DNA from: a virus
Taxonomy: Duplodnaviria > Caudoviricetes
Reading direction: 5' to 3' (one strand)
Length of the DNA: 64,000 bases
Virus record (IMG/VR): IMGVR_UViG_3300028805_000048
Within the stretch, counting starts at the first letter, position 1. The number at the start of each line of letters is the position of its first letter. This document shows, piece by piece, positions 9,374-52,141 of this stretch. The notes below the pieces were generated by a model. It saw only the letters and a program-made list of their open reading frames with translations. It searched no databases and was not told the origin of the DNA. A program made the translations under genes and the position numbers.

Positions 9374-9511
9374 TATTTGTTTTCCTTATAAAAGTTAAAT
9401 ATTAATATTTTAATAATTAGAACCTGTATTTTTGTATAACAAAAGAATAGTCTAATTTATACTTTGAACATTTAGACTATTTATTTTATATAATTTATAA
9501 ATTTAACAACT

Positions 9512-10426
9512 TTATATTTCAAAATTAGATTTTTCTGGAAACATTGCATCCAGGAATTTATTTAATTTAGGAAATTTTAAATAGTTTCCAATAACATTAT
9601 CAAAAACACTTATCCAATTTTCTTTAAAATAAGCATCAGTTAAATCATATCCAGAAGATATTTTTACATCTTTTATTTTATGTGGTGCTGGTAAATTACT
9701 ATCCTTAAACATATTTTTATATAAAGTTCTTTTATGTAAAACACCAGATTGATTCATGAAATTTTTAATTGGACGCGTTTCTATAAATTTTAAATAATTT
9801 TCTTTATTAACCACAATAGGTAAATGTGATTCATAGTTATAATCTGTTTTAATCATACATTTTTCTAATAATTTTTCAGCATGTATAAAACCTTCTTGCC
9901 ATCTAGATCTTTTACTTTTTGCTTTCCATCTTCTTGCTTCATCCGAAATATAACCTAAGCAAACGTTTAAAGAATCTTCCCAATCATATATTGGACGTAT
10001 CGCTATAAAATCATCATTCATCAAAATAAAATTATCAGATATATCTTTACATTCACAAGCAGTTTTCCAATTCAAACAACTGTTTTTCCATTTGCTACCT
10101 ATTTTTTGACTTGTATGAATATATTCTACGTTTTTTAACCAAGAAGGTTTATATCCAACAATCCAAATTTTTCTAAAATAACAAAATTTTTCAATAGATC
10201 GTAATGACATTTTCAAATCTAAATTGTCTTCTGATTCTTTTACTATATAAACTAAATCATATTGACTATCAGATTCGATTACATTTTCATCGTCATCTTT
10301 ATCATAATTATAACAAAATTTTATTAATTCTAAAGCTCTATCTGAAAGTATTGTTCGCTTTTTTGTTAATTCTAGCTGTCTTGTTATCGCTTTTATACTT
10401 CCTGCAGCCGGTATTAATCCACCCAC
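9512..10426 (-). CDS. Stealth-family-like sugar-phosphotransferase
   Basis: DLVY, LKMSLRSIEKF..RKIWIVG..PSWL and FILMNDDF resemble Stealth conserved regions. Confidence 0.55.
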   Translation of the reverse strand: MGGLIPAAGSIKAITRQLELTKKRTILSDRALELIKFCYNYDKDDDENVIESDSQYDLVYIVKESEDNLDLKMSLRSIEKFCYFRKIWIVGYKPSWLKNVEYIHTSQKIGSKWKNSCLNWKTACECKDISDNFILMNDDFIAIRPIYDWEDSLNVCLGYISDEARRWKAKSKRSRWQEGFIHAEKLLEKCMIKTDYNYESHLPIVVNKENYLKFIETRPIKNFMNQSGVLHKRTLYKNMFKDSNLPAPHKIKDVKISSGYDLTDAYFKENWISVFDNVIGNYLKFPKLNKFLDAMFPEKSNFEI

Positions 10427-29361: not shown

Positions 29362-29865
29362 ATGAGGATTAGGATGCGAATATATACTGATGCTAGTACT
29401 AGATCTAAAATTTCTGGTTTAGGATATGTAGCTACAACTAGTAAACATCAAATAATCAAAAAAGATGGTATAGCTATAAATCAAAATGATAATAACACTG
29501 CTGAATTACAAGCTATAATTTATGCAATAGAAGAAACACAGTATAGTTTACAAGATAATGAAAAAATAATAATATTTACAGATTCTACTTATGCAATAAA
29601 TGCTATTAGAAATAATCATTATAGATCTGAAGAAGAACCATTGGTTAAAAAAATTCAAAATATGATAGAGTATAGTGATTATAAGCTTTTTCACGTTAAA
29701 GGTCATTGCCAAGATGGTACTATTTTATCACATTTCAATAAAAAAGCAGATAAAATGTCGAAGTTTGTTAGAAAAGAATATGAAAAAGAATTAGAAGAAA
29801 CTAAAAAACAAAAGAAATTATTAGCTATAGCGAAATCAAAACTGTTAAAAGATAATAATTTATAA
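29362..29865 (+). CDS. rnhA: Ribonuclease HI
   Basis: IYTDAS, NNTAELQAI, IFTDSTY, HVKGH, N.KAD. Confidence 0.88.
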   Translation: MRIRMRIYTDASTRSKISGLGYVATTSKHQIIKKDGIAINQNDNNTAELQAIIYAIEETQYSLQDNEKIIIFTDSTYAINAIRNNHYRSEEEPLVKKIQNMIEYSDYKLFHVKGHCQDGTILSHFNKKADKMSKFVRKEYEKELEETKKQKKLLAIAKSKLLKDNNL

Positions 29866-29938
29866 TTTTAAATAAAAAATGACTTTACAAAATTCATTTA
29901 ATATTTTATTTATATAATCAATTTGAAAGGTTAATTAC

Positions 29939-30169
29939 ATGAATAATTTATATTACATAAAATTAGAAAATGATACGATTGTTAACATGTATATCGCTAA
30001 AAATTTAAATGATGCTATTTTAAAATTTTTACATGATAATATATCTCATATTGGATTATTACAACTATTAGAAAATCATTTAACTTTAGATTTATGGATT
30101 AGAAAAGAGAATGAACAATCTAAAAAGATTAATGTTGATATAGACTATAACGTTAATATTAGGAGTTAA
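29939..30169 (+). CDS. Hypothetical protein
   Basis: TGAAAGG RBS and TTTACA promoter upstream. Confidence 0.55.
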   Translation: MNNLYYIKLENDTIVNMYIAKNLNDAILKFLHDNISHIGLLQLLENHLTLDLWIRKENEQSKKINVDIDYNVNIRS

Positions 30170-30171
30170 TT

Positions 30172-30639
30172 ATGTCTAATTTGAAAGAAAATTTGAAAAT
30201 CATAAAAGAATTAACAAAAATTATAAAAGATAATCCAGATTGGCGTTTTCAACAATTGTTATGGAATTGTGGAATAATTGGTAGAAATTATAATGATCAA
30301 GATAAATTAGAAATAGAAGATAAATTTTATGAAAATTCAGATACTACATTAAAAATAATTAAAAATTTTTTACAAAATAGTGAAGATAGGCGTTTAGAAT
30401 ATTTACATTCGCATTCTTTGATGAATCGTGAAGAATTAGAAAAAGGAATAAAATGTCATTGTTTTTGTTGTTGTACAGAATTTAATTTTTCAGAAATTAA
30501 AGAATGGACTGATAATAATAAGACAGCAATTTGTCCATATTGTAAAGTAGATGCCATTCTTTCAGCAAATTTAAATATAACAAAAAATGAAATAAATAAA
30601 TTAAATAAAAAATATTTTAAGAAATCAACAGTTCTATAG
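30172..30639 (+). CDS. Two-domain hypothetical protein with C-terminal Cys cluster
   Basis: PDWRFQQLL N-terminal domain; CHCFCC...CPYC. Confidence 0.6.
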   Translation: MSNLKENLKIIKELTKIIKDNPDWRFQQLLWNCGIIGRNYNDQDKLEIEDKFYENSDTTLKIIKNFLQNSEDRRLEYLHSHSLMNREELEKGIKCHCFCCCTEFNFSEIKEWTDNNKTAICPYCKVDAILSANLNITKNEINKLNKKYFKKSTVL

Positions 30640-30643
30640 AATT

Positions 30644-30706
30644 ATGATGAAAAACTTTGAAATTACATATTCAGATTCCTATAATCAACCTGAAAGTTTA
30701 GGTTGA
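30644..30706 (+). CDS. Attenuator leader peptide 1 (MMKNFEITYSDSYNQPESLG)
   Basis: 20-codon ORF starting 7 nt after GTTCTA; its residues match the downstream tRNA set; overlaps the 1:2 and 2:3 pairing segments. Confidence 0.78.
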   Translation: MMKNFEITYSDSYNQPESLG

Positions 30707-30736
30707 TAGGTTTTTGTATACAAAGTTTTTAATCAC

Positions 30737-30780
30737 AAAAGCCTGTCAAAAAAAAAATAAAAATGACAGGCTTTTTATTT
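30737..30780 (+). terminator. Attenuator terminator of tRNA operon 1
   Basis: AAAAGCCTGTCA...TGACAGGCTTTTTATTT; the left arm can alternatively pair with 30704-30716. Confidence 0.8.
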
Positions 30781-30868
30781 TAAGGCTTTACAAAAAAGAA
30801 ATTACATGTTAAAAATAATTTTGTTTGTAAAGAGTTATAAAGACATTGTAAATAGGAAACAATATTAT

Positions 30869-30960
30869 GGAGGATTGCTAGAGAGGCTTAATAGAGCGGT
30901 TTTGAAAACCGTCGTGGATGAAATATGCCACCGAGTGTTCGAATCACTCATCCTCCGCCA
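30869..30960 (+). tRNA. tRNA-Ser(TGA)
   Basis: Cloverleaf with long variable arm, loop TT-TGA-AA, GCCA end. Confidence 0.92.
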
Positions 30961-31194
30961 ATAAGCTGCTGAGAGGGTTGTAGTAACTGTAGTTAAGAGA
31001 TTTAGAGCTCCTTAACAAAGCAGATTCCCATAACGGACAATGCTCAGTAGAATCTCTAAATGGATCGTTATAAAAACTACAAATTTTGGGGTGTCATATA
31101 TTGTAAGATACATGTCGGTCAGGCCTAGGGTACAAATAGAGGAAAGCTATATGCTGTGAATGTTTACCGTCACCTACCCCAAACATTTTTAAAA

Positions 31195-31268
31195 GCCGAA
31201 TTAGTATAATGGTATTACGACTGACTTGTAATCAGTTTATGGGAGTTCGATTCTCTCATTCGGCACCA
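31195..31268 (+). tRNA. tRNA-Thr(TGT)
   Basis: Loop CT-TGT-AA, TTCGA, ACCA end. Confidence 0.92.
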
Positions 31269-31273
31269 TTTTT

Positions 31274-31350
31274 TGGAATGTAGCTCAGTTGGTTAGAGCG
31301 CTTGACTGTTAATCAAGATGTCGTGGGTTCGAATCCCACCTTTCCAGCCA
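31274..31350 (+). tRNA. tRNA-Asn(GTT)
   Basis: Loop CT-GTT-AA, GCCA end. Confidence 0.93.
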
Positions 31351-31355
31351 ATCAC

Positions 31356-31433
31356 GGTGTTTTCGTTCAGTTGGTCTAGGACATCGCCCTGTCACGGCGA
31401 AGATCACGGGTTCAAATCCCGTAAACACCGCCA
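31356..31433 (+). tRNA. tRNA-Asp(GTC)
   Basis: Loop CT-GTC-AC, GCCA end. Confidence 0.93.
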
Positions 31434-31539
31434 TTTAAGGTTGAAAAGTTTGGTTTATGGAACCTACTATCTAATAAACTATATACCTTTATTAGCATCA
31501 TGATTGTGTAGTAGGTATGCTAATATAAAACTTTTTCAT

Positions 31540-31614
31540 GCGACCATCGACTAATGGTTAGGTCATCACCCTTTCACGGTGGTAATAGGGGTTCAAATCC
31601 CCTTGGTCGTACCA
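31540..31614 (+). tRNA. tRNA-Glu(TTC)
   Basis: Loop CT-TTC-AC, ACCA end. Confidence 0.92.
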
Positions 31615-31618
31615 ATAT

Positions 31619-31694
31619 CCTCAGGTAGTTAAAGTGGTTATAACGGGGGTCTTATAAACCTCTATTCCTGGTTCGAGTCCAGGCCAGAGGACCA
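31619..31694 (+). tRNA. tRNA-Ile(TAT)
   Basis: Stem GGGGT/ACCTC, loop CT-TAT-AA, ACCA end. Confidence 0.88.
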
Positions 31695-31707
31695 ATTTAT
31701 TTTTAAT

Positions 31708-31784
31708 CGGGAGTTAGCTCAGCCTGGTAGAGCGCTTGCTTTGGGAGCAAGATGCCGTTGGTTCGAATCCAATACTCCCGACCA
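31708..31784 (+). tRNA. tRNA-Pro(TGG)
   Basis: Loop TT-TGG-GA, ACCA end. Confidence 0.93.
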
Positions 31785-31790
31785 ATTTAT

Positions 31791-31876
31791 GCAAGGTTAT
31801 ACCGTAGGAGTAGCGGGACAGACTGTAAATCTGTTGTCTTTGGACTCGGGTAGTGCGACTCTATCACCTTGCACCA
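31791..31876 (+). tRNA. tRNA-Tyr(GTA)
   Basis: Loop CT-GTA-AA, variable arm, ACCA end. Confidence 0.88.
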
Positions 31877-31883
31877 GTTTTAT

Positions 31884-31963
31884 GGGGCGTTAAATCTGGT
31901 TCTAGAACAGATTGCTTAGGATGTAGATCCAAGATAACATGTGAAAATCATGTGGCCCCGCCA
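31884..31963 (+). ncRNA. Aberrant tRNA-like RNA
   Basis: GGGGC/GCCCC acceptor with GCCA end and three arms, but non-canonical D, anticodon and T loops. Confidence 0.55.
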
Positions 31964-32104
31964 AGTTAGGGAGTTTCTTGTAGTTCTTCTCCGTGGATAG
32001 GACAATTAGTGATGAACTAGTTTGTCAAAAAGAGCTGCTTTTGTGGGAACAATACACTGAGATTACATCATACGGTCCATGTTCCCTTCTCTTTTTTTTT
32101 TATT

Positions 32105-32178
32105 TAGGGTGTCTTCTAAGGGTCGGAAAGTGGAATTTGACTCCATTAATCGAGGTTCGAATCCTTGCACCCTAGCCA
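32105..32178 (+). tRNA. tRNA-Gln(TTG)
   Basis: Stem GTGGA/TCCAT, loop AT-TTG-AC, GCCA end. Confidence 0.9.
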
Positions 32179-32377
32179 CAGTTCAAAAATTGTCAGAAAT
32201 GGAGATTTTTTTGCTATTTTACAAGCATGTAAGTTAATTCAAAGATAAATATATTTTGAAGGTTAGTTTTACAATAACTTAGCTATGTGAAAAATTAAAT
32301 TAGTAATAAAATAAGTTGAATTTATGAATTATCTATACTTTAATAATTGGAACTAGATTATTACTAGGAGTAATATA

Positions 32378-33169
32378 ATGACTGTAAACAAATATAAAGA
32401 TATCATTATCAATAAATATACAGAATATGATGAAGATACTCGTTTGGTTAGTGATAGAGGACATAATTTAGAATATTTAACCACTATGCGTTATATTCAA
32501 AAATTCCTAAAACCAGGTGCTAAAATATTAGAAATCGGTGCAGCAACTGGACGTTATTCTATTACTTTGGCTGAGATGGGGTATGATGTTACTGCTGTTG
32601 ACCTTACTCCTAAAAATATTGAAGTAATGAAATCTAAAAGTAAAAGATTAAAGAATTTTAATTGTATGATTGGCGATGCTTTGGATTTGAGCATGTTTGA
32701 TGATAAAACTTTTGATATGGTTTTAAATTTAGGACCTATGTATCATTTATTTAACAAAAAAGATAAAAACAAAGCAGTAAGTGAAACTTTACGTGTTGCT
32801 AAAAGAAAAGCGATATGTATGTTTGCGTATCTTCCTTGTGCTTCATTAATGACTAGTTATGGTTTACGACACCAAGCAGTTTCTCATTTAGACGAGTTAA
32901 TGGATAATGTCGGACGTTTTAAGGATACACCTGAAGAAATATTTAATACTTTTCATATTGAAGATTTTAAGAAGCTATTTAATAAAACAAATACAAAATA
33001 TATTACTAATGTAGCTACTGATGGTATAGCATATGCTATGAAAGAATGGGTAGAACAATTATCTAAAAAAGATTATGATGCTTTTATAAAATGGCATTTT
33101 TTAACTTGTGAGCGTATTGATCAACAAGGATATAGTGCGCATTTGTTATATATTTGTAAGAAAAAGTAG
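32378..33169 (+). CDS. Class I SAM-dependent methyltransferase
   Basis: ILEIGAATGRY, VTAVDL, GDALDL, FDMVLNLGPMYHL. Confidence 0.88.
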   Translation: MTVNKYKDIIINKYTEYDEDTRLVSDRGHNLEYLTTMRYIQKFLKPGAKILEIGAATGRYSITLAEMGYDVTAVDLTPKNIEVMKSKSKRLKNFNCMIGDALDLSMFDDKTFDMVLNLGPMYHLFNKKDKNKAVSETLRVAKRKAICMFAYLPCASLMTSYGLRHQAVSHLDELMDNVGRFKDTPEEIFNTFHIEDFKKLFNKTNTKYITNVATDGIAYAMKEWVEQLSKKDYDAFIKWHFLTCERIDQQGYSAHLLYICKKK

Positions 33170-33343
33170 TTTATTTATCTTGAGAATTATAAGCTCACTT
33201 TAGCTAATTTATGTAAAGAATTGTCCCAGTAATCCTATGACATCTTAGTAATGTTATGATCTGTTCTATGCAATAACATAGAGTTTTAAAAATTCCTAGG
33301 TTCTATTTTTAAAATGGACAAATGATATTTTTAATTATTTTAT

Positions 33344-33447
33344 GGGAAGCGTATATAGCTATGGAGACTATGGCAAGGACTAGTACCCTTGTCCTCGTAA
33401 GTACTAGTTAAAGAGACGGATGGTTCGATTCCACAAACTTCCCACCA
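33344..33447 (+). ncRNA. Aberrant, enlarged tRNA-like RNA (104 nt)
   Basis: GGGAAG/CTTCCC acceptor with ACCA end and GGTTCGATTCC T-arm; ambiguous anticodon region. Confidence 0.6.
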
Positions 33448-33457
33448 TATTTACTAA

Positions 33458-33549
33458 GGAACAGTGGCTGAGTGGTTTAAAGCAGCGATCTACTAAATCG
33501 TCGAGGGCAGAAATGTCTTCCAATCGTTCGAATCGATTCTGTTCCGCCA
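33458..33549 (+). tRNA. tRNA-Ser(ACT)
   Basis: Ser-type body with long variable arm and G73; stem GCGAT/ATCGT, loop CT-ACT-AA. Confidence 0.88.
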
Positions 33550-33645
33550 ATTTTAAAAATGTTGTTTCCTATAAAAAAATGACTTTACAAAATAAAAAAT
33601 TTGTTTTATATATAAAAATATAAAATGAGAAAGGTTCTAATAAAT

Positions 33646-33723
33646 ATGATGAATAGATTAGTTAAAAAATGTTGGCACATGTTTGGATTCGCAGGTAAAA
33701 CTGACGGAGGTGTTAACTATTAA
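33646..33723 (+). CDS. Attenuator leader peptide 2 (MMNRLVKKCWHMFGFAGKTDGGVNY)
   Basis: 25-codon ORF starting 6 nt after GTTCTA (GAAAGG upstream); the run KKCWHMFGFAGK matches all 8 downstream tRNAs. Confidence 0.85.
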   Translation: MMNRLVKKCWHMFGFAGKTDGGVNY

Positions 33724-33752
33724 CTAAAATCTTTTCTAAAGTTAATTTAAAT

Positions 33753-33799
33753 AAAAACCTCCGAAAAAGTAAAAAGTTTCGGAGGTTTTTCTTATTTTT
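33753..33799 (+). terminator. Attenuator terminator of tRNA operon 2
   Basis: AAAAACCTCCGAAA...TTTCGGAGGTTTTTCTTATTTTT; the left arm is complementary to CGGAGGT at 33705-33711 in the leader. Confidence 0.85.
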
Positions 33800-33819
33800 A
33801 TGTATATATTATGAAGATT

Positions 33820-33898
33820 GGGGAATGGGACTGCTTGGGGTGGTCATCTCGTTTGCACCGAGAAATTCAGGTGAGTTCAAAACTCACATTCTCCACCA
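33820..33898 (+). tRNA. tRNA-Ala(TGC)
   Basis: G3:U70 pair, loop TT-TGC-AC, ACCA end. Confidence 0.9.
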
Positions 33899-33900
33899 AT

Positions 33901-33976
33901 GGATATCTGGTATAGCTGGTGCGTACGTCTGTCTGAAGAACAGAAGGACCGAGTTCGATTCTTGGGGTATCCACCA
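33901..33976 (+). tRNA. tRNA-Phe(GAA)
   Basis: Loop CT-GAA-GA, ACCA end. Confidence 0.9.
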
Positions 33977-33980
33977 TTAC

Positions 33981-34056
33981 GGAGCTATAGTATAAATGGT
34001 TATTACTTGCGACTTTTAATCGTAAAATCAAGATTCGAGTTCTTGTGGCTCCACCA
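33981..34056 (+). tRNA. tRNA-Lys(TTT)
   Basis: Loop CT-TTT-AA, ACCA end. Confidence 0.9.
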
Positions 34057-34059
34057 AAT

Positions 34060-34135
34060 GGCAACATATTTCAATCGGTAGAAAGCATCTCTCATAAGGA
34101 TGTAGTTACTTGTTCAAGTCAAGTTGTTGCCACCA
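34060..34135 (+). tRNA. tRNA-Met(CAT), elongator (Ile2 not excluded)
   Basis: Paired G1:C72, loop CT-CAT-AA. Confidence 0.85.
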
Positions 34136-34138
34136 TGT

Positions 34139-34212
34139 GGACCGTTGACAGAGCGTTTATGTGTTCGGCTGCAACCCGAATTAGATGGGTTAGACTCCCT
34201 TACGGTTCTCCA
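34139..34212 (+). tRNA. tRNA-Cys(GCA)
   Basis: Loop CT-GCA-AC, U73 discriminator. Confidence 0.88.
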
Positions 34213-34214
34213 AT

Positions 34215-34289
34215 GCGATTCTCGTATAATGGTTATTATGTTAGTCTTCCAAACTAAAGATATGAGTTCAATTCTCATGAATCGCTCCA
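34215..34289 (+). tRNA. tRNA-Gly(TCC)
   Basis: Loop CT-TCC-AA, U73 discriminator. Confidence 0.9.
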
Positions 34290-34291
34290 AA

Positions 34292-34365
34292 GGAGGTTTA
34301 GTTCAAAGGTAGAACACTGGTCTCCAAAACCAAAAATGATTGTTCGAGTCAGTCAACCTCTGCCA
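34292..34365 (+). tRNA. tRNA-Trp(CCA)
   Basis: Loop CT-CCA-AA, GCCA end. Confidence 0.9.
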
Positions 34366-34415
34366 TTTCAAAATTTTACGCATAGAAGTATATATCAGTG
34401 ACTTGGTTTATACTT

Positions 34416-34492
34416 GTGTGCGTAGCATAAATGGATAATGCACTGGTTTGTGGTACCAGATCATGTGGGATCATACCCCACCGTACACCCCA
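34416..34492 (+). tRNA. tRNA-His(GTG)
   Basis: Stem CTGGT/ACCAG, loop TT-GTG-GT, C73; genomic base at -1 is T rather than G. Confidence 0.85.
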
Positions 34493-34628
34493 ATAAAATT
34501 TTTATTTATGGCTTTACTTTTACAAAACATTATTTTATTTTAAATTTGTTTGTTAAATATATACAAACGTTGTATTAACCGTGGAATTTTTCAGAAACCA
34601 CATTAAATAAACTGAAGAGGATAATGAA

Positions 34629-34850
34629 ATGTCAAAAAGTCAAATGATAGATAGACGTATAAATAAAATAGATGATAATTTTGTATATGTTGAATATACT
34701 TATTTATATGTCGATGAAAAAGAAAATATAGAAAAACAAAAAGGTGATTTTAAAGGTTTTCATCCAATTGGTAAAACTATCCATAAAAATATTAAGATGC
34801 ATGGAAAATATACTGGTTGGGTATGGGGACAAATGTATCAAAAAAATTAG
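34629..34850 (+). CDS. Hypothetical protein
   Basis: GAGGA RBS; TTTACT promoter at about 34514. Confidence 0.6.
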   Translation: MSKSQMIDRRINKIDDNFVYVEYTYLYVDEKENIEKQKGDFKGFHPIGKTIHKNIKMHGKYTGWVWGQMYQKN

Positions 34851-34876
34851 AAATATTTTTAAATAAAATAGTTCTA

Positions 34877-35197
34877 ACATCAATGTCGTTTGAGCCGCGA
34901 CTTTAAAATAATGACGGATGAAAAATTCCAAGCTCAATTGGAGTGCTGTATCCATAGTCAAAAAATTAACAGCTATAGTAGTAAACTACTGGTGTTTGAA
35001 TATTTAACCTATAGAAATAATATTCAGTTCTGCAACTTAAGATTTATCTTATCTATAAAGTTGTTCGGTTTAAGAGTAATCGATTGAATACGTATGGAGT
35101 ATAGTGCACGAAACATACGATACGATAAAGACTTAATCAAACTCTTCGTTATCTATTGACAGATTGTTGTTGACTACGTTAATGTCAACTTTTATTT
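34877..35197 (+). ncRNA. Candidate structured RNA (about 310 nt) leading into tRNA-fMet
   Basis: Nested long-range stems and at least five internal hairpins; GTTCTA motif at 34871. Confidence 0.5.
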
Positions 35198-35199
35198 AT

Positions 35200-35275
35200 A
35201 GCAGGGTAGAGCAGTAGTAGCTTACTTGGCTCATAACCAAGAGGTCGTGGTGTGCAATTCCCACCCCTGCAACCA
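35200..35275 (+). tRNA. tRNA-fMet(CAT), initiator-like
   Basis: Unpaired 1:72, TAGAGCAG D-stem, loop CT-CAT-AA, AACCA end. Confidence 0.85.
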
Positions 35276-35278
35276 ATC

Positions 35279-35579
35279 AAATTTGGTTTTACTCGAATAA
35301 TTAGTTGATGGCTAATAAGAGTACATATATAAATACTGAAAAGTTTTATGTGTGGTTGGATGTAACAAGAAGCATAAAGTTGAATTAGCATAGGTTGGCC
35401 AACCTATAGTGACGTAAGAAATGGACAAATCGTGTTGAACAATACTGACATCTGTATCCATTTGGAGGTAAACAATCCTCTCATCTATTAAACAAAAGAT
35501 TAGCTACCTTTTGTAGATGTGACTGAATAATGTGCTTGTTAATAACTTGGAGGTAGTCAGGAGTCCTTCAACCAAATTT
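35279..35579 (+). ncRNA. Candidate multi-hairpin ncRNA (about 300 nt)
   Basis: Closing stem AAATTTGGTT/AACCAAATTT with many internal hairpins; no plus-strand ORF in the track. Confidence 0.55.
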
Positions 35580-35603
35580 TTAATTAAGTAAAAGGAATAG
35601 AAT

Positions 35604-35777
35604 ATGAAAAAGAAAAAACGAATAAAAACAGGTGAAGAAAGAATAATTCTATTTAATCTTTATCACAATAAAATATATCGACACAAGGTAATAAAAAATA
35701 AAAAAAGAGAACAAAAGAAGTTCAATATAAATAAAGAGATTGGTTATTATTCAAGTTGTTATCTATTAACTGTTTAA
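35604..35777 (+). CDS. ArfA-like alternative ribosome rescue factor, 57 aa (not in ORF track)
   Basis: AAAGGA RBS; LYHNKIYRHKVIKNKK aligns by eye with ArfA LLHDPLFRQRVEKNKK; long hairpin over the 3-prime end; hydrophobic tail. Confidence 0.6.
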   Translation: MKKKKRIKTGEERIILFNLYHNKIYRHKVIKNKKREQKKFNINKEIGYYSSCYLLTV

Positions 35778-35839
35778 ATAATAACCAATTTTCTTTTATT
35801 AAATTTGTTTTTTTTTGATTATTATATGGTGTTAAAATA

Positions 35840-36214
35840 ATGATTTATAAACATTTTCTAGATTTCACAAAAAATTCTCCTTTTGATAAATTATCAGGTG
35901 ATCAAAAAAGAGCTGTAGAAACACAAGCTAACATAGATTTAGAAGCACATAAACTGTCAAGATATTATAAAAAAGCTATAAAAGATGAAGAAATAGAGAA
36001 TGAATTGTTTAAAGCTTTATGCAAACAATATGCAAAAAAATCTGAAAATGAGTTAAAGAAAATGGTAATATTAGATTCAAAAGCTTTATACTATTATCCA
36101 TTAACAAAAGATAGAATTGAATATTACGAAAAATTAGCAAAAGAAAAAGCTGATGCCATGGATAGAAATATATATGCTCAAACAAAATTACATTTTAAAA
36201 ACTTCGATAGATAA
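35840..36214 (+). CDS. Hypothetical protein
   Basis: ORF track. Confidence 0.6.
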   Translation: MIYKHFLDFTKNSPFDKLSGDQKRAVETQANIDLEAHKLSRYYKKAIKDEEIENELFKALCKQYAKKSENELKKMVILDSKALYYYPLTKDRIEYYEKLAKEKADAMDRNIYAQTKLHFKNFDR

Positions 36215-36285
36215 AAAGGTTTTACAAAAATAATAATTTGAAATATATAAAAAATGTAATAAAAATAATTCTCGGAGATATTAAT

Positions 36286-36579
36286 ATGAAAAAAATTTTA
36301 TGTTTGTTTAGTGTTTTGTTTTTATTTGCTTGTACATCTACACCGGAAGTAACAGAAAATAAAAATGTAACTTTACGAAATTCTAATGAGATGAAGTATA
36401 ACTCTTATAGTAAAACAGAATGTAATACTTGTACATCATCATATACAGTTCGTAAACCAGTTGAAGTTATCTATGAAAATACTACATACACAACAGTTTA
36501 TGAACCAAAAGTATACACAACAATAACACATGAAAGAAAACCTTATAATAGATGTGAAAATTCTGATTTGTGTTATTAG
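36286..36579 (+). CDS. Lipoprotein
   Basis: GGAGA RBS; MKKILCLFSVLFLFAC signal peptide with lipobox Cys. Confidence 0.75.
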   Translation: MKKILCLFSVLFLFACTSTPEVTENKNVTLRNSNEMKYNSYSKTECNTCTSSYTVRKPVEVIYENTTYTTVYEPKVYTTITHERKPYNRCENSDLCY

Positions 36580-36593
36580 TTTTTAGAGTTTTT

Positions 36594-36630
36594 AAAAAAA
36601 GAGATGCTTTTAAACATCTCTTTTTTTTAT
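36594..36630 (+). terminator. Intrinsic terminator (bidirectional)
   Basis: AAAAAAAGAGATG/CATCTCTTTTTTT. Confidence 0.75.
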
Positions 36631-36684
36631 TTATGGCTTTACTTTTCATTTTGTATAGTTTATAATTAAATTATAAATTTTTAT

Positions 36685-36774
36685 GGGAAGGTGACTGAGA
36701 TAAACAAAGGTGATATAGAATAACTATATTGTCAAGAAATTGACTGTTCAGGTGAGATTCCTGACCTTCCCCCA
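36685..36774 (+). ncRNA. Aberrant class II tRNA-like RNA
   Basis: GGGAAGG/CCTTCCC acceptor then CCA; variable arm GTCAA/TTGAC; T-arm TCAGG/CCTGA; no U33 in the anticodon loop. Confidence 0.6.
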
Positions 36775-36805
36775 CGTTTATAAATCTAATTTATGAAAGA
36801 ACAAA

Positions 36806-37750
36806 ATGTCTTATAAAAACTACTATAGTATACTTGAACTAGGATATGATTGTACACAAGATGATATAGAAAGAGCATATCATTATTATGCTAGAATATA
36901 TCATCCAGAAATAAATCCAAAAGGTGGTAATTTATATAGAGAAATAGTTAATGCTTATAATATCTTAAAAGATCCTATAAAGCGTGAAAAATATGATTTG
37001 CAACATAAAATACACTCTAGAGCTATATTAGAAGATTTAAAAGAAAAAGCAAAATTTACAGTACAGATTAGAGATGATATTGGAGAAAGAATAGAACAAT
37101 TATATGATAAATATAAGAATAAATATTCTAATGATGAAATAATTGAAAAAATATCTAATAGAGTAGCATTAGTATGTGAAGAAATAATACCATCTATAAA
37201 GCAATTTGTTTTTTATAGAAAAAAAGAAGATGAATTTATAAAAAATGATAAAATTGATAGATCTATAGATTTTCCATTTGATTGGTATGAAGATAATCAA
37301 TATTTTGCTATAATAGATAAACAACCGATATTTGATATTTTATACAATATAAACGATTATAGATTTGAAAATGTATGTTCTGGAATTTATAATAGAAGTA
37401 TAATTTCTATAATTTTTTCTTGTTTGATTTATATTTTAGCTTTACCTGTTATACTTATTTCTAAAATAATTAGAAAATTTAATATTGATTTTGAAAAAAT
37501 AGATGATAAAAATACACCAAAGTGGATAAAATATTACATATACATGATATATAAAAATAATTTTTGTGAAGTTTTAGGAAGTGTTATTTTTTTACTTGGA
37601 TTTATAGTTATAAAAACATTAGATAAAATTTTATATTCTTTATACTGGATTTTCGATAGAATATTAAAAGTCTTTATTTTACCTTTTGCATATGTGTTTA
37701 AATGGATAATATTAGGTTTTACAATTTTATGGATATTATCTATACTATAG
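36806..37750 (+). CDS. J-domain (DnaJ-like) membrane protein
   Basis: NYYSILEL..C.QDDIERAY...YHPEIN...EIVNAYNILKDPIKREKYD; hydrophobic C-terminal segments. Confidence 0.8.
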   Translation: MSYKNYYSILELGYDCTQDDIERAYHYYARIYHPEINPKGGNLYREIVNAYNILKDPIKREKYDLQHKIHSRAILEDLKEKAKFTVQIRDDIGERIEQLYDKYKNKYSNDEIIEKISNRVALVCEEIIPSIKQFVFYRKKEDEFIKNDKIDRSIDFPFDWYEDNQYFAIIDKQPIFDILYNINDYRFENVCSGIYNRSIISIIFSCLIYILALPVILISKIIRKFNIDFEKIDDKNTPKWIKYYIYMIYKNNFCEVLGSVIFLLGFIVIKTLDKILYSLYWIFDRILKVFILPFAYVFKWIILGFTILWILSIL

Positions 37751-50713: not shown

Positions 50714-52141
50714 ATGAGTGGTAATGTATCTAAACTCGTTAATGATGCTATGATTGAAATGATTGTATTGTTTCCAACATTAGCATATACAATGTCAAGA
50801 ATAGGTATTAACGTTGTAAACAAACCAGAAATAAATGCTTGTGCTTATACTGATGGTACAGGAATTTATATCAATGAGTATGCTATTGAAAAGATGAATG
50901 AAATGGGAACTGAAGTTGGTAATAACGGTAAAACATATAATGTTACTATCAACAAAGGTAATGTCATCTTCATATTAGCTCATGAATTGATGCACTTGTT
51001 GAATAATACTTGGTCAAGAGGTGAAGCAATTGGTGTTTATTCAGATGACTTTAGTGCTAAAGGTAAAGCTAGAAATGAATTATGGAATATAGCTACAGAC
51101 TATGAAATTAATTCATTGCTTTATCATAATCAATCTACTGATAGTTTAGGTAGAAGTTCGAGTAAACCTGTTGGTAATAAACCAGAATGGTGTTTGTATG
51201 ATGATAAATATAGAGATGTTCCTGCTGAAAAGATTTTTGCTGAACTTCTTAATAACATGCAAACTAACAGTAATGGTTCAATGTCATTAGAATCTGGTGG
51301 GATGTCATTTACGTTTGATGATGATCAGAACAATGGTCAAGGTCAATCTAACAGTCAATCTGGTCAAGGTCAAAATAATAACGGTCAACAAGGTAATGGT
51401 AAAAAGCAATCTAATGGTTTAACATATGGTCTTGATAAGCACATGCCTTACGTTGATGAACAGACTAAAGCTGAAGTTGCTGCTAAGATTGGTGATGCTT
51501 TAGCTCAATCTGGAAATGGTCAAGGAACAGGTATGTCTGCTTTTGATAGAGCATTAGAGATTCTGTTTAAACCACAACCATTCAATTGGAGACGTGCTCT
51601 TACAAGATATATGAAGTCTTTTGTTAAAGATAATTATACTTGGAATAAACCTTCAAGAGCTGGTATTGCTAATAACCTTATCTTGCCTTCATCTTCAAAG
51701 ATGCCTAAATTACATGTTGCGATAGCAGTTGATACTTCTGGTTCAATTGGTAATCCTGAATTAACATTGTTGTTAAATCATGTATTTACAATCTTAAATC
51801 AATTCAAAGCATTTCAAGTAGATGTATGGTGTTGTAGTACACAGGTTCATGAAGAAACCTTTACAACATATACATCTGCTAACAAGAATGAATTAAGGAA
51901 TTTCAAGATGGCATCAGATGGTGGTACAGATATGTCTGCAAATCTTCCGTTCATTAAGAAGAAATATTCTGGACAAATGCCTGATGTTGTAATGATATTT
52001 ACGGATGGGTTCGATGATTTATCTGGTGATACAACTACTAGAACAAATTATCCAATCTTATGGTTGATTGTTGATAACAAAAACTTCAAGAAACCAGCAT
52101 TGATTCCAGGTGCTGTTTATGAATTCAACACCGATGCTTAG
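50714..52141 (+). CDS. Metallopeptidase-like plus VWA-domain protein (DUF2201 type), MoxR partner
   Basis: AYTDG, LAHELMH, WNIATDYEIN; VDTSGS MIDAS, GGTD, IFTDG. Confidence 0.88.
   Translation: MSGNVSKLVNDAMIEMIVLFPTLAYTMSRIGINVVNKPEINACAYTDGTGIYINEYAIEKMNEMGTEVGNNGKTYNVTINKGNVIFILAHELMHLLNNTWSRGEAIGVYSDDFSAKGKARNELWNIATDYEINSLLYHNQSTDSLGRSSSKPVGNKPEWCLYDDKYRDVPAEKIFAELLNNMQTNSNGSMSLESGGMSFTFDDDQNNGQGQSNSQSGQGQNNNGQQGNGKKQSNGLTYGLDKHMPYVDEQTKAEVAAKIGDALAQSGNGQGTGMSAFDRALEILFKPQPFNWRRALTRYMKSFVKDNYTWNKPSRAGIANNLILPSSSKMPKLHVAIAVDTSGSIGNPELTLLLNHVFTILNQFKAFQVDVWCCSTQVHEETFTTYTSANKNELRNFKMASDGGTDMSANLPFIKKKYSGQMPDVVMIFTDGFDDLSGDTTTRTNYPILWLIVDNKNFKKPALIPGAVYEFNTDA

Follow-up and report, generated by a model that had tools for sequence, protein, structure and literature searches.

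Predicted leader-peptide attenuators in front of two tRNA operons of a rumen jumbo phage

Two tRNA arrays are found in a 64,000-nucleotide stretch (the window, by which the whole stretch is meant) of the IMG/VR virus record IMGVR_UViG_3300028805_000048. Each of them is preceded by a short open reading frame (ORF) whose codons name the amino acids of its own tRNAs, and by an intrinsic terminator whose 3' arm is copied at the end of the ORF. In our judgement these tRNA operons are quite likely gated by ribosome-mediated leader-peptide transcription attenuators, through which the phage would sense the supply of the very tRNAs encoded downstream. The support for this switch is computational throughout and consists of sequence comparison and folding models.

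The source record (G000) comprises 157 kb with a G+C content of ~28% and is 66% complete by CheckV. Tail sheath, helicase and homing-endonuclease genes are carried by the record. The DNA runs holding this phage come from sheep and bovine gut, and the phage is a rumen jumbo phage. The tRNA genes were called with ARAGORN and Rfam (cmscan of 29500-37000 at E <= 1), and in the window all of them lie within 30869-35272.

Architecture of the two leaders

The first operon contains the following elements.

30631-30636, + strand: GTTCTA motif of leader 1, phage promoter-like, with the leader ATGATG 7 nt downstream
30644-30706, + strand: leader ORF 1, 20 codons, core EITYSDSYNQPES, with 9/9 array amino acids present
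30684-30707, + strand: 1:2 hairpin within the end of leader 1, predicted to sequester the antiterminator strand
30704-30714, + strand: segment 2, the predicted antiterminator strand of leader 1, overlapping the stop codon and copying the terminator 3' arm
30737-30783, + strand: intrinsic terminator 1, with arms 30737-30748 and 30764-30775, then a T tract
30786-30859, + strand: promoter-like CTTTACA-N18-AAAAAT and a conserved block, between terminator 1 and the first tRNA
30869-32178, + strand: tRNA array 1, with Ser(TGA), Thr, Asn, Asp, Glu, Ile(TAT), Pro, Tyr(GTA) and Gln
33458-33549, + strand: tRNA-Ser with anticodon ACT, downstream of array 1 and a methyltransferase gene, cognate to the AGT codon of leader 1

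All nine amino acids of array 1 are found inside 11 residues of leader 1. Random peptides with the amino-acid composition of the phage match this in 77 of 200,000 trials. At the codon level, 10 of the 14 in-set codons are strictly cognate to the anticodons of array 1. The weakest tRNA call of this array is tRNA-Tyr(GTA) at 31791-31876, which ARAGORN reports only at a relaxed threshold and which scores 28.5 bits with Rfam. Terminator 1 (30737-30775) has a 12-bp stem with a stability of -15.3 kcal/mol (z = -7.5 against shuffles), and about 90 nt separate it from the first tRNA of the array.

The second operon is more compact.

33583-33612, + strand: sigma-70-like promoter candidate (CTTTACA, 17 nt, TATATA) upstream of leader 2, with the same arrangement in the related phages G001 and G002
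33634-33639, + strand: GTTCTA motif of leader 2, with ATGATG 6 nt downstream
33646-33723, + strand: leader ORF 2, 25 codons, core KKCWHMFGFAGK at codons 7-18, with 8/8 array amino acids and a core that varies only synonymously among four phages
33703-33714, + strand: predicted antiterminator strand of leader 2 (codons 20-23), copying the terminator 3' arm
33753-33799, + strand: intrinsic terminator 2, with arms 33753-33766 and 33777-33790, then a T tract
33820-34492, + strand: tRNA array 2, with Ala, Phe, Lys, Met, Cys, Gly(TCC), Trp and His

The KKCWHMFGFAGK core is built from the amino acids of array 2 and none besides. All eight are found inside 9 residues, an arrangement that none of 200,000 random peptides of phage composition reproduces. 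Terminator 2 (33753-33790) has a 14-bp stem, a stability of -16.8 kcal/mol and a z of -3.5 against shuffles, and lies about 30 nt from the first tRNA. In the operons of the leader-2 type the terminator generally adjoins the first tRNA (9-34 nt; about 95 nt in the related phage G009), and because of this the switch is probably their only gate. For array 1, leader 1 is not the sole input, because a conserved promoter-like block stands between terminator 1 and the first tRNA. The conserved part of this block (30834-30859, GTTATAAAGACATTGTRAATAGGAAA) is kept in seven related phages (also L005, L006, L007, L029, L030 and L154), and in five of them the CTTTACA promoter-like box is found just before it. 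The GTTATAAAGACATTGTRAATAGGAAA block could be a second promoter or a processing signal.

A first-pass annotation of the window, made from its letters alone, had described this arrangement of GTTCTA, 6-7 nt, ATGATG short ORF, antiterminator at the ORF end, intrinsic terminator and tRNAs as occurring twice, and all of its elements could be located. Its statement that each leader core lists the amino acids of its own array is borne out by the counts given above, and arrays 1 and 2 indeed have no amino acid in common. It is also true that the two leaders jointly use all 20 amino acids, to which we give little weight.

The two leaders were not picked from many candidates. In the 157-kb record 16 short ORFs start 4-11 nt after a GTTCTA, and leaders 1 and 2 are the only two of these with at least 10 codons and a terminator behind. 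One further site, at 34871-34906, was considered as a third leader and is not established. It is a 7-codon ORF (MSFEPRL) that starts 6 nt after GTTCTA and ~290 nt before the tRNA(CAT) gene at 35200-35272, and the scan finds no terminator behind it.

Co-variation of leaders and arrays in related phages

Leaders of related phages were gathered from IMG/VR with three probes, namely the neighbouring GMP reductase, the tail sheath and a content-blind DNA pattern made of promoter box, GTTCTA and ATGATG. Eight further phage records with tRNA islands and leaders were obtained, and one record without leaders. The 13 further leaders in these eight records bring the set to 15 leaders in nine records, all of one clade. 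The DNA pattern also has chance matches elsewhere in IMG/VR (n=15), none of which has a terminator or tRNAs behind it. In GenBank no close relative is found; the nearest tail sheath is 23-33% identical, and the DNA matches are tRNAs only. The neighbouring 155-aa protein and the methyltransferase retrieved no relatives as IMG/VR protein queries. A metagenome scan with a GMP reductase profile gave one new close contig of 2.7 kb, and its distant matches are all without a tRNA array.

The correspondence between leader and array is seen most directly in the following operons of the relatives.

G002 (98% complete): array Met Leu Pro Glu Ala Thr Asn Asp; all eight present in the leader
G002: array Tyr Ile Phe Lys Met Arg; leader core KMMFKYIRFYK
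G002: array Cys His Trp; leader core HCWCHH
G006: array His Pro Phe Trp; leader core FWHHFP
G009: array Pro Phe Cys Trp; leader core CFWPCFP

The leaders of G006 and G009 are evidently homologous, and the exchange of His and Cys between them mirrors the exchange in their arrays. In the leader-1 family, Val, Leu and Arg codons appear where the arrays gained tRNA-Val, tRNA-Leu and tRNA-Arg (G001); the core of leader 1 in the window is without these codons, and array 1 is without these tRNAs. Among 13 untruncated arrays, the amino acids are completely covered by the leader in 10 (G001 being counted here once the Rfam-detected tRNA-Thr is included), and the other three are one amino acid short. 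About 85% of the in-set leader codons are strictly cognate to the anticodons of the array. The random-peptide test on seven different sets gave 0 to 5842 matches in 200,000 trials each, with a summed log10 P of -25.8. The first-pass annotation had proposed a permutation test of leader content against tRNA content. Run on six leaders and six arrays, it ranks the true pairing as the best of 720 permutations.

The pattern of substitutions tells which level is kept. When the four type-A leaders are compared, variation in the 12-codon core is confined to four columns and is synonymous in each of them. The flanks of the same leaders have six variable columns, all of which change the amino acid. This contrast indicates that selection acts on the tRNA that is called for and not on the peptide. 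All four type-A leaders also have an unchanged GGAGGT in the antiterminator. Co-variation at the level of single codons was considered for glycine, where GGA changes to GGC together with a change of anticodon from TCC to GCC between the window and G005. This candidate is ruled out, since G007 has GGC with TCC.

Same-amino-acid tRNAs of the relatives are too diverged from each other or not orthologous, and they fail as search anchors. The tRNA genes are thus replaced and not inherited, and the amino acid stays on the list in the leaders. Judged from these comparisons, the leader is kept current as the arrays are reshuffled.

Three observations on individual tRNAs may be added. tRNA-Phe (33901-33976), tRNA-Trp and tRNA-Cys are unrelated in sequence between the window and the G002 island (L006), and the CCA end is encoded in all of them. 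Across the clade (window, G002, G004, G005 and G009) a tRNA-Ser is kept whose anticodon ACT, with A at position 34, is unusual, and AGT codons are present in the leaders matching the tRNA-Ser(ACT) phages. In G007 (L154, reverse-complement island 9480-9568), ARAGORN at a relaxed threshold gives a weak call of a possible suppressor tRNA, whose TTA anticodon would decode the stop codon TAA.

Competition between terminator and antiterminator

Intrinsic terminators are found behind all 15 leaders, with stems of 8-14 bp, stabilities of -12.6 to -16.8 kcal/mol (energies for 12) and a T tract. In every leader, the last codons or those close to them contain a near-copy of the terminator 3' arm. Pairing of the leader 3' end with the 5' arm of its own terminator gives a mean of -11.75 kcal/mol, compared with -7.41 kcal/mol for cross pairs, and none of 100,000 random re-pairings reaches the total of the own-pair duplexes. 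The antiterminator therefore co-varies with the terminator. In the window, the own 2:3 duplex of leader 1 has -13.9 kcal/mol and the own antiterminator duplex of leader 2 has -13.3 kcal/mol. Together with the match of leaders and arrays in the relatives, this co-variation supports the claim of the first-pass annotation that multi-codon leader attenuators sense the supply of their own tRNAs.

The effect of the ribosome was followed in a stall scan, in which the nascent transcript was folded up to the terminator loop with the ribosome-covered nucleotides masked and the A site placed on each codon in turn. With the ribosome on the core codons, the antiterminator gains -8 to -17 kcal/mol. Once the A site has reached the last few codons or the stop codon, the gain drops in most leaders to at most about -4 kcal/mol, and several leaders then have none at all. 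When the ribosome is left out of the model, the value is 0.0 kcal/mol for leaders 1, 2 and that of G006, and -2 to -5.3 kcal/mol in the other leaders. In leader 1, the 1:2 hairpin (30684-30707) would act as an anti-antiterminator that hides segment 2 when the ribosome is absent. In these models the leaders follow the logic known from trp and ilv: read-through is predicted when the ribosome stalls on the regulatory codons, and termination is predicted when translation is either completed or absent.

GTTCTA and the start of the leader transcript

The GTTCTA motif does not serve as a ribosome-binding site. Of its 98 sites in the genome, 25 are followed at a distance of 15-60 nt by the start of a co-oriented ORF, compared with 1-6 for five control hexamers, and a Shine-Dalgarno sequence is found between GTTCTA and those ORF starts. 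The motif behaves like a phage promoter element because it is enriched and co-oriented upstream of ORF starts with the Shine-Dalgarno sequence in between. In 21 of the 25 gene-upstream sites an A stands directly before GTTCTA. The extended form A-GTTCTA-WWWW precedes co-oriented ORFs by 22-46 nt, structural genes included (for example at 9418, 11355 and 22395 of the window), and it probably marks a class of phage promoters.

In the 13 leaders of the relatives, GTTCTA is found 6-7 nt ahead of the start codon (10 nt in one). Because of this fixed spacing of 6-7 nt between a promoter-like element and the leader ATG, the leader mRNA is probably leaderless or nearly so, with a transcription start presumed to lie close to the ATG. 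The leader ATG of G006 likewise follows a canonical TTGACT-N17-TATAGT box at a distance of 6 nt. For several leaders there is, in addition, a sigma-70-like CTTTACA-N17-TAnAAT promoter some 45 nt farther upstream.

Proposed mechanism and its limits

Transcription would begin upstream of the leader or at the leader, and a ribosome would translate the ORF of 17-28 codons, the middle part of which offers one or two codons for each amino acid of the downstream tRNAs. When decoding is fast, the ribosome would reach the last codons and cover the 3'-arm copy, so that the terminator forms and transcription ends before the tRNAs. When any cognate aminoacyl-tRNA is scarce, the ribosome would linger on the core and the copy segment could pair with the 5' arm of the terminator. 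With the antiterminator formed, RNA polymerase would read into the tRNA array. Where translation is absent, an upstream segment would sequester the copy segment, which would make termination the default. The outcome would be a negative feedback, by which the phage would replenish precisely those tRNAs that serve the slowly decoded codons; slow decoding would thus be the physiological trigger.

The first-pass annotation had pictured the leaders as an OR gate over 8-9 tRNA species. Its idea of stall-based sensing is supported by the present analysis, and the clean OR gate is to be replaced: because each amino acid is represented by one or two codons, the device probably sums decoding delays over the core and works as a timer rather than as a strict OR gate.

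Several points weigh against attenuation as described here. One or two codons per amino acid give a far shorter stall than the tandem codons of the trp and his leaders, and some leaders keep an antiterminator gain of up to about -5 kcal/mol in the model without a ribosome. Transcription and translation may not be coupled tightly enough in the host. One array amino acid is missing from the leader in G005 (Arg), G003 (Arg) and G007 (Asp), and every leader has a few residues without a matching tRNA in its array. Leaders are absent from many small arrays and single tRNAs of the clade and from every array of the complete genome G012. Array 1 and the other L1-type operons may be transcribed in part independently of the attenuator through the CTTTACA box and the conserved block. 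The ends of the long operons are presumed; no terminator is predicted from 30775 to 33753. In a sheep-gut metatranscriptome, 67% of the sampled words are present as assembled contigs, and neither leader is usably covered. These contigs are uninformative on the leaders and cannot show transcript ends.

Alternative explanations

The same switch could mainly serve counter-defence. In that case it would stay off until a host anticodon nuclease (PrrC, RloC, a VapC-like enzyme, PARIS or retron effectors) destroys one tRNA species, and the replacement cassette would then be induced. The device would respond to the loss of any tRNA species that is read in the core, and an arms race could be behind the replacement of same-amino-acid tRNA genes by unrelated ones among the relatives. 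Phage tRNAs are reported in recent papers to be connected with tRNA-cleaving defences (e.g. PMC13462974). Nevertheless, no connection of the leaders with a nuclease is seen in the window or the related phages, and among the amino acids covered by the leaders are some whose tRNAs are not known to be attacked by nucleases. With ~28% G+C, a phage has an obvious need for a tRNA supply suited to its own codons, and all observations are accounted for by simple feedback. We regard this purpose as unlikely, though as the most serious of the alternatives. Host anticodon nucleases as the trigger were a claim of the first-pass annotation to which nothing tested here points, since plain feedback on decoding speed explains the data equally well.

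The remaining alternatives concern the switch itself. Leader translation might control the arrays through RNase processing, RNA stability or Rho access, with the hairpins as processing or insulating signals. The tRNAs must indeed be excised from the same transcript, the L1-type operons carry an extra conserved block without an assigned role, and the terminators could also end upstream transcription units. We consider such a control improbable, since the hairpins are canonical intrinsic terminators with T tracts, and the 3'-arm copy in every leader co-varies with its terminator, which is a signature of terminator/antiterminator competition. The dependence on stall position likewise fits the terminator/antiterminator model. 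It could further be argued that the ORFs have arisen by chance or encode small peptides without relation to the tRNAs, and that the terminators end the upstream genes. This AT-rich record contains 919 junk ORFs of 15-35 codons, and leader 1 stands directly behind a protein gene. The random-peptide and junk-ORF controls contradict this idea, as do the best-of-720 pairing, the purely synonymous change of the core and the His/Cys swap that tracks the tRNA swap. With only two ORFs of this architecture in the 157-kb record as well, we consider this alternative extremely improbable.

Comparison with known attenuators

Enterobacterial leader-peptide attenuators include the multivalent ilvGMEDA, ilvBN and thr leaders and also trpL, hisL, leuL and pheL. 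The ilv, thr and trp types combine a short translated leader and its regulatory codons with an intrinsic terminator, an antiterminator that depends on ribosome position, and termination as the default. The phage leaders have the regulatory codons, the terminator and the antiterminator segment in common with them, and translation, dependence on ribosome position and a default of termination are predicted. The two groups differ in what they control and in what they read. Biosynthetic genes follow the bacterial leaders, and tRNA genes follow the phage leaders, which lie outside the classical scope of attenuators (amino-acid biosynthesis, transport and synthetase genes). The bacterial leaders contain runs of one to three amino acids, whereas the phage leaders list 3 to 13 different amino acids once or twice each. 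Furthermore, the phage switch would restore the tRNA itself, unlike attenuators of the ilv, thr and trp type. The cmscan of 29500-37000 (E <= 1) gave only tRNAs and chance-level matches, and no Rfam leader family (Trp_leader, His_leader, Thr_leader, Leu_leader or others) and no T-box.

The T-box follows the same logic as the phage leaders, in that a shortage of charged tRNA opens a terminator so that genes for translation supply are made. No ribosome takes part in the T-box, which recognizes a single uncharged tRNA by direct binding; the genes under its control are those for synthetases, transport or biosynthesis. In the phage leaders, by contrast, the translating ribosome would read the signal. 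In mycobacteria, leaderless polycysteine short ORFs are reported to act as cysteine-responsive attenuators (bioRxiv 10.1101/834739). They resemble the phage leaders as short regulatory ORFs, probably at the 5' end of the transcript, that would sense amino-acid supply by ribosome stalling. They differ in sensing a single amino acid, in controlling cysteine-related genes and in residing on a bacterial chromosome; the leaderless state of the phage transcripts is presumed.

The same design is found in the Caulobacter phage phiCbK, an unrelated, GC-rich and cultured phage without sequence similarity to this clade and without the GTTCTA motif. At 51341-51502 of JX100813, a 32-codon ORF composed of the amino acids of its tRNA block, with the core QFVRQIQVV and an internal copy of the terminator 3' arm is followed by a terminator and then by the tRNAs Phe Val Ile Ile Val Gln Gln. 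In the stall scan this leader behaves like those of the window. The phiCbK genome paper makes no mention of attenuation or leaders (PMC3556154). Elsewhere in phiCbK, gp083 (L160, JX100813 49540-49769) is annotated with 45 aa and is rich in Ser, Leu, Pro and Lys; it is followed by an annotated terminator and then by Pro Pro Lys Lys Leu Leu Leu Ser Ser tRNAs. Probably, gp083 represents a leader peptide and not a protein gene. In the tRNA region of phage T5, small ORFs are present and no match of leader, terminator and array is found.

Phage tRNA arrays are usually treated as constitutive cargo for codon usage or counter-defence, and to our knowledge the regulation of phage tRNA genes is essentially unknown. 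The first-pass annotation knew of no description of such control for phage tRNA arrays. This agrees with our full-text literature search, which found no attenuators on tRNA operons in its coverage (older subscription papers lie outside it). The mechanism is classical; what is new is the target, tRNA genes, and the roster-like, highly multivalent leader. If true, this would be the first attenuator known to govern tRNA genes, and its leader peptides, with up to 13 amino acids, would be the most multivalent known. The co-variation, for example the His-to-Cys swap of leader and tRNA, is unusually clean for a regulatory element found from sequence alone.

A wider view would be that roster-type leader attenuators are a general phage invention that has arisen repeatedly. 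Phages would encode the roster of the tRNAs they carry in a tiny ORF, which in the present clade is probably translated from a leaderless transcript begun at a phage-specific promoter. The host ribosome would serve them as a decoding meter, each tRNA block would be regulated separately and the list would be kept current as tRNA genes come, go and are shuffled, and phages would gain a built-in alarm for host tRNA-cleaving defences. We see the chances of this wider view as evenly balanced. Since the cultured phiCbK carries the same design, the idea can be tested at the bench now. Annotators would have a simple rule to spot regulated tRNA operons in phage genomes, and synthetic biology would have compact sensors for the availability of chosen tRNAs.

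Other features of the tRNA island

Array 1 contains three long spacers, at 30961-31194 (234 nt), 31434-31539 (106 nt) and 31877-32104 (228 nt), for which RNA contigs are present and no Rfam family is found. The non-coding region 34508-35577 around the tRNA(CAT) gene also has no Rfam family. Its contig depth in the sheep-gut metatranscriptome is 50-236, compared with 0-10 in the neighbouring bins, and its depth in the DNA run is low. The region may hold abundant stable RNAs, with contig depth being a weak measure of this.

The ORF at 35604-35777 had been called ArfA-like in the first-pass annotation. This assignment is not upheld, as no ArfA match is found in Pfam (E <= 0.1) or NCBIfam (E <= 10), nor a match to any other family of the two collections. 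The ORF is small and very basic and has the motif KVIKNKK..KKFN. It is conserved beside tRNAs in G002, where its counterpart is located in the reverse complement of L006, upstream of a tRNA-Ser(ACT)/Ile(TAT) pair.

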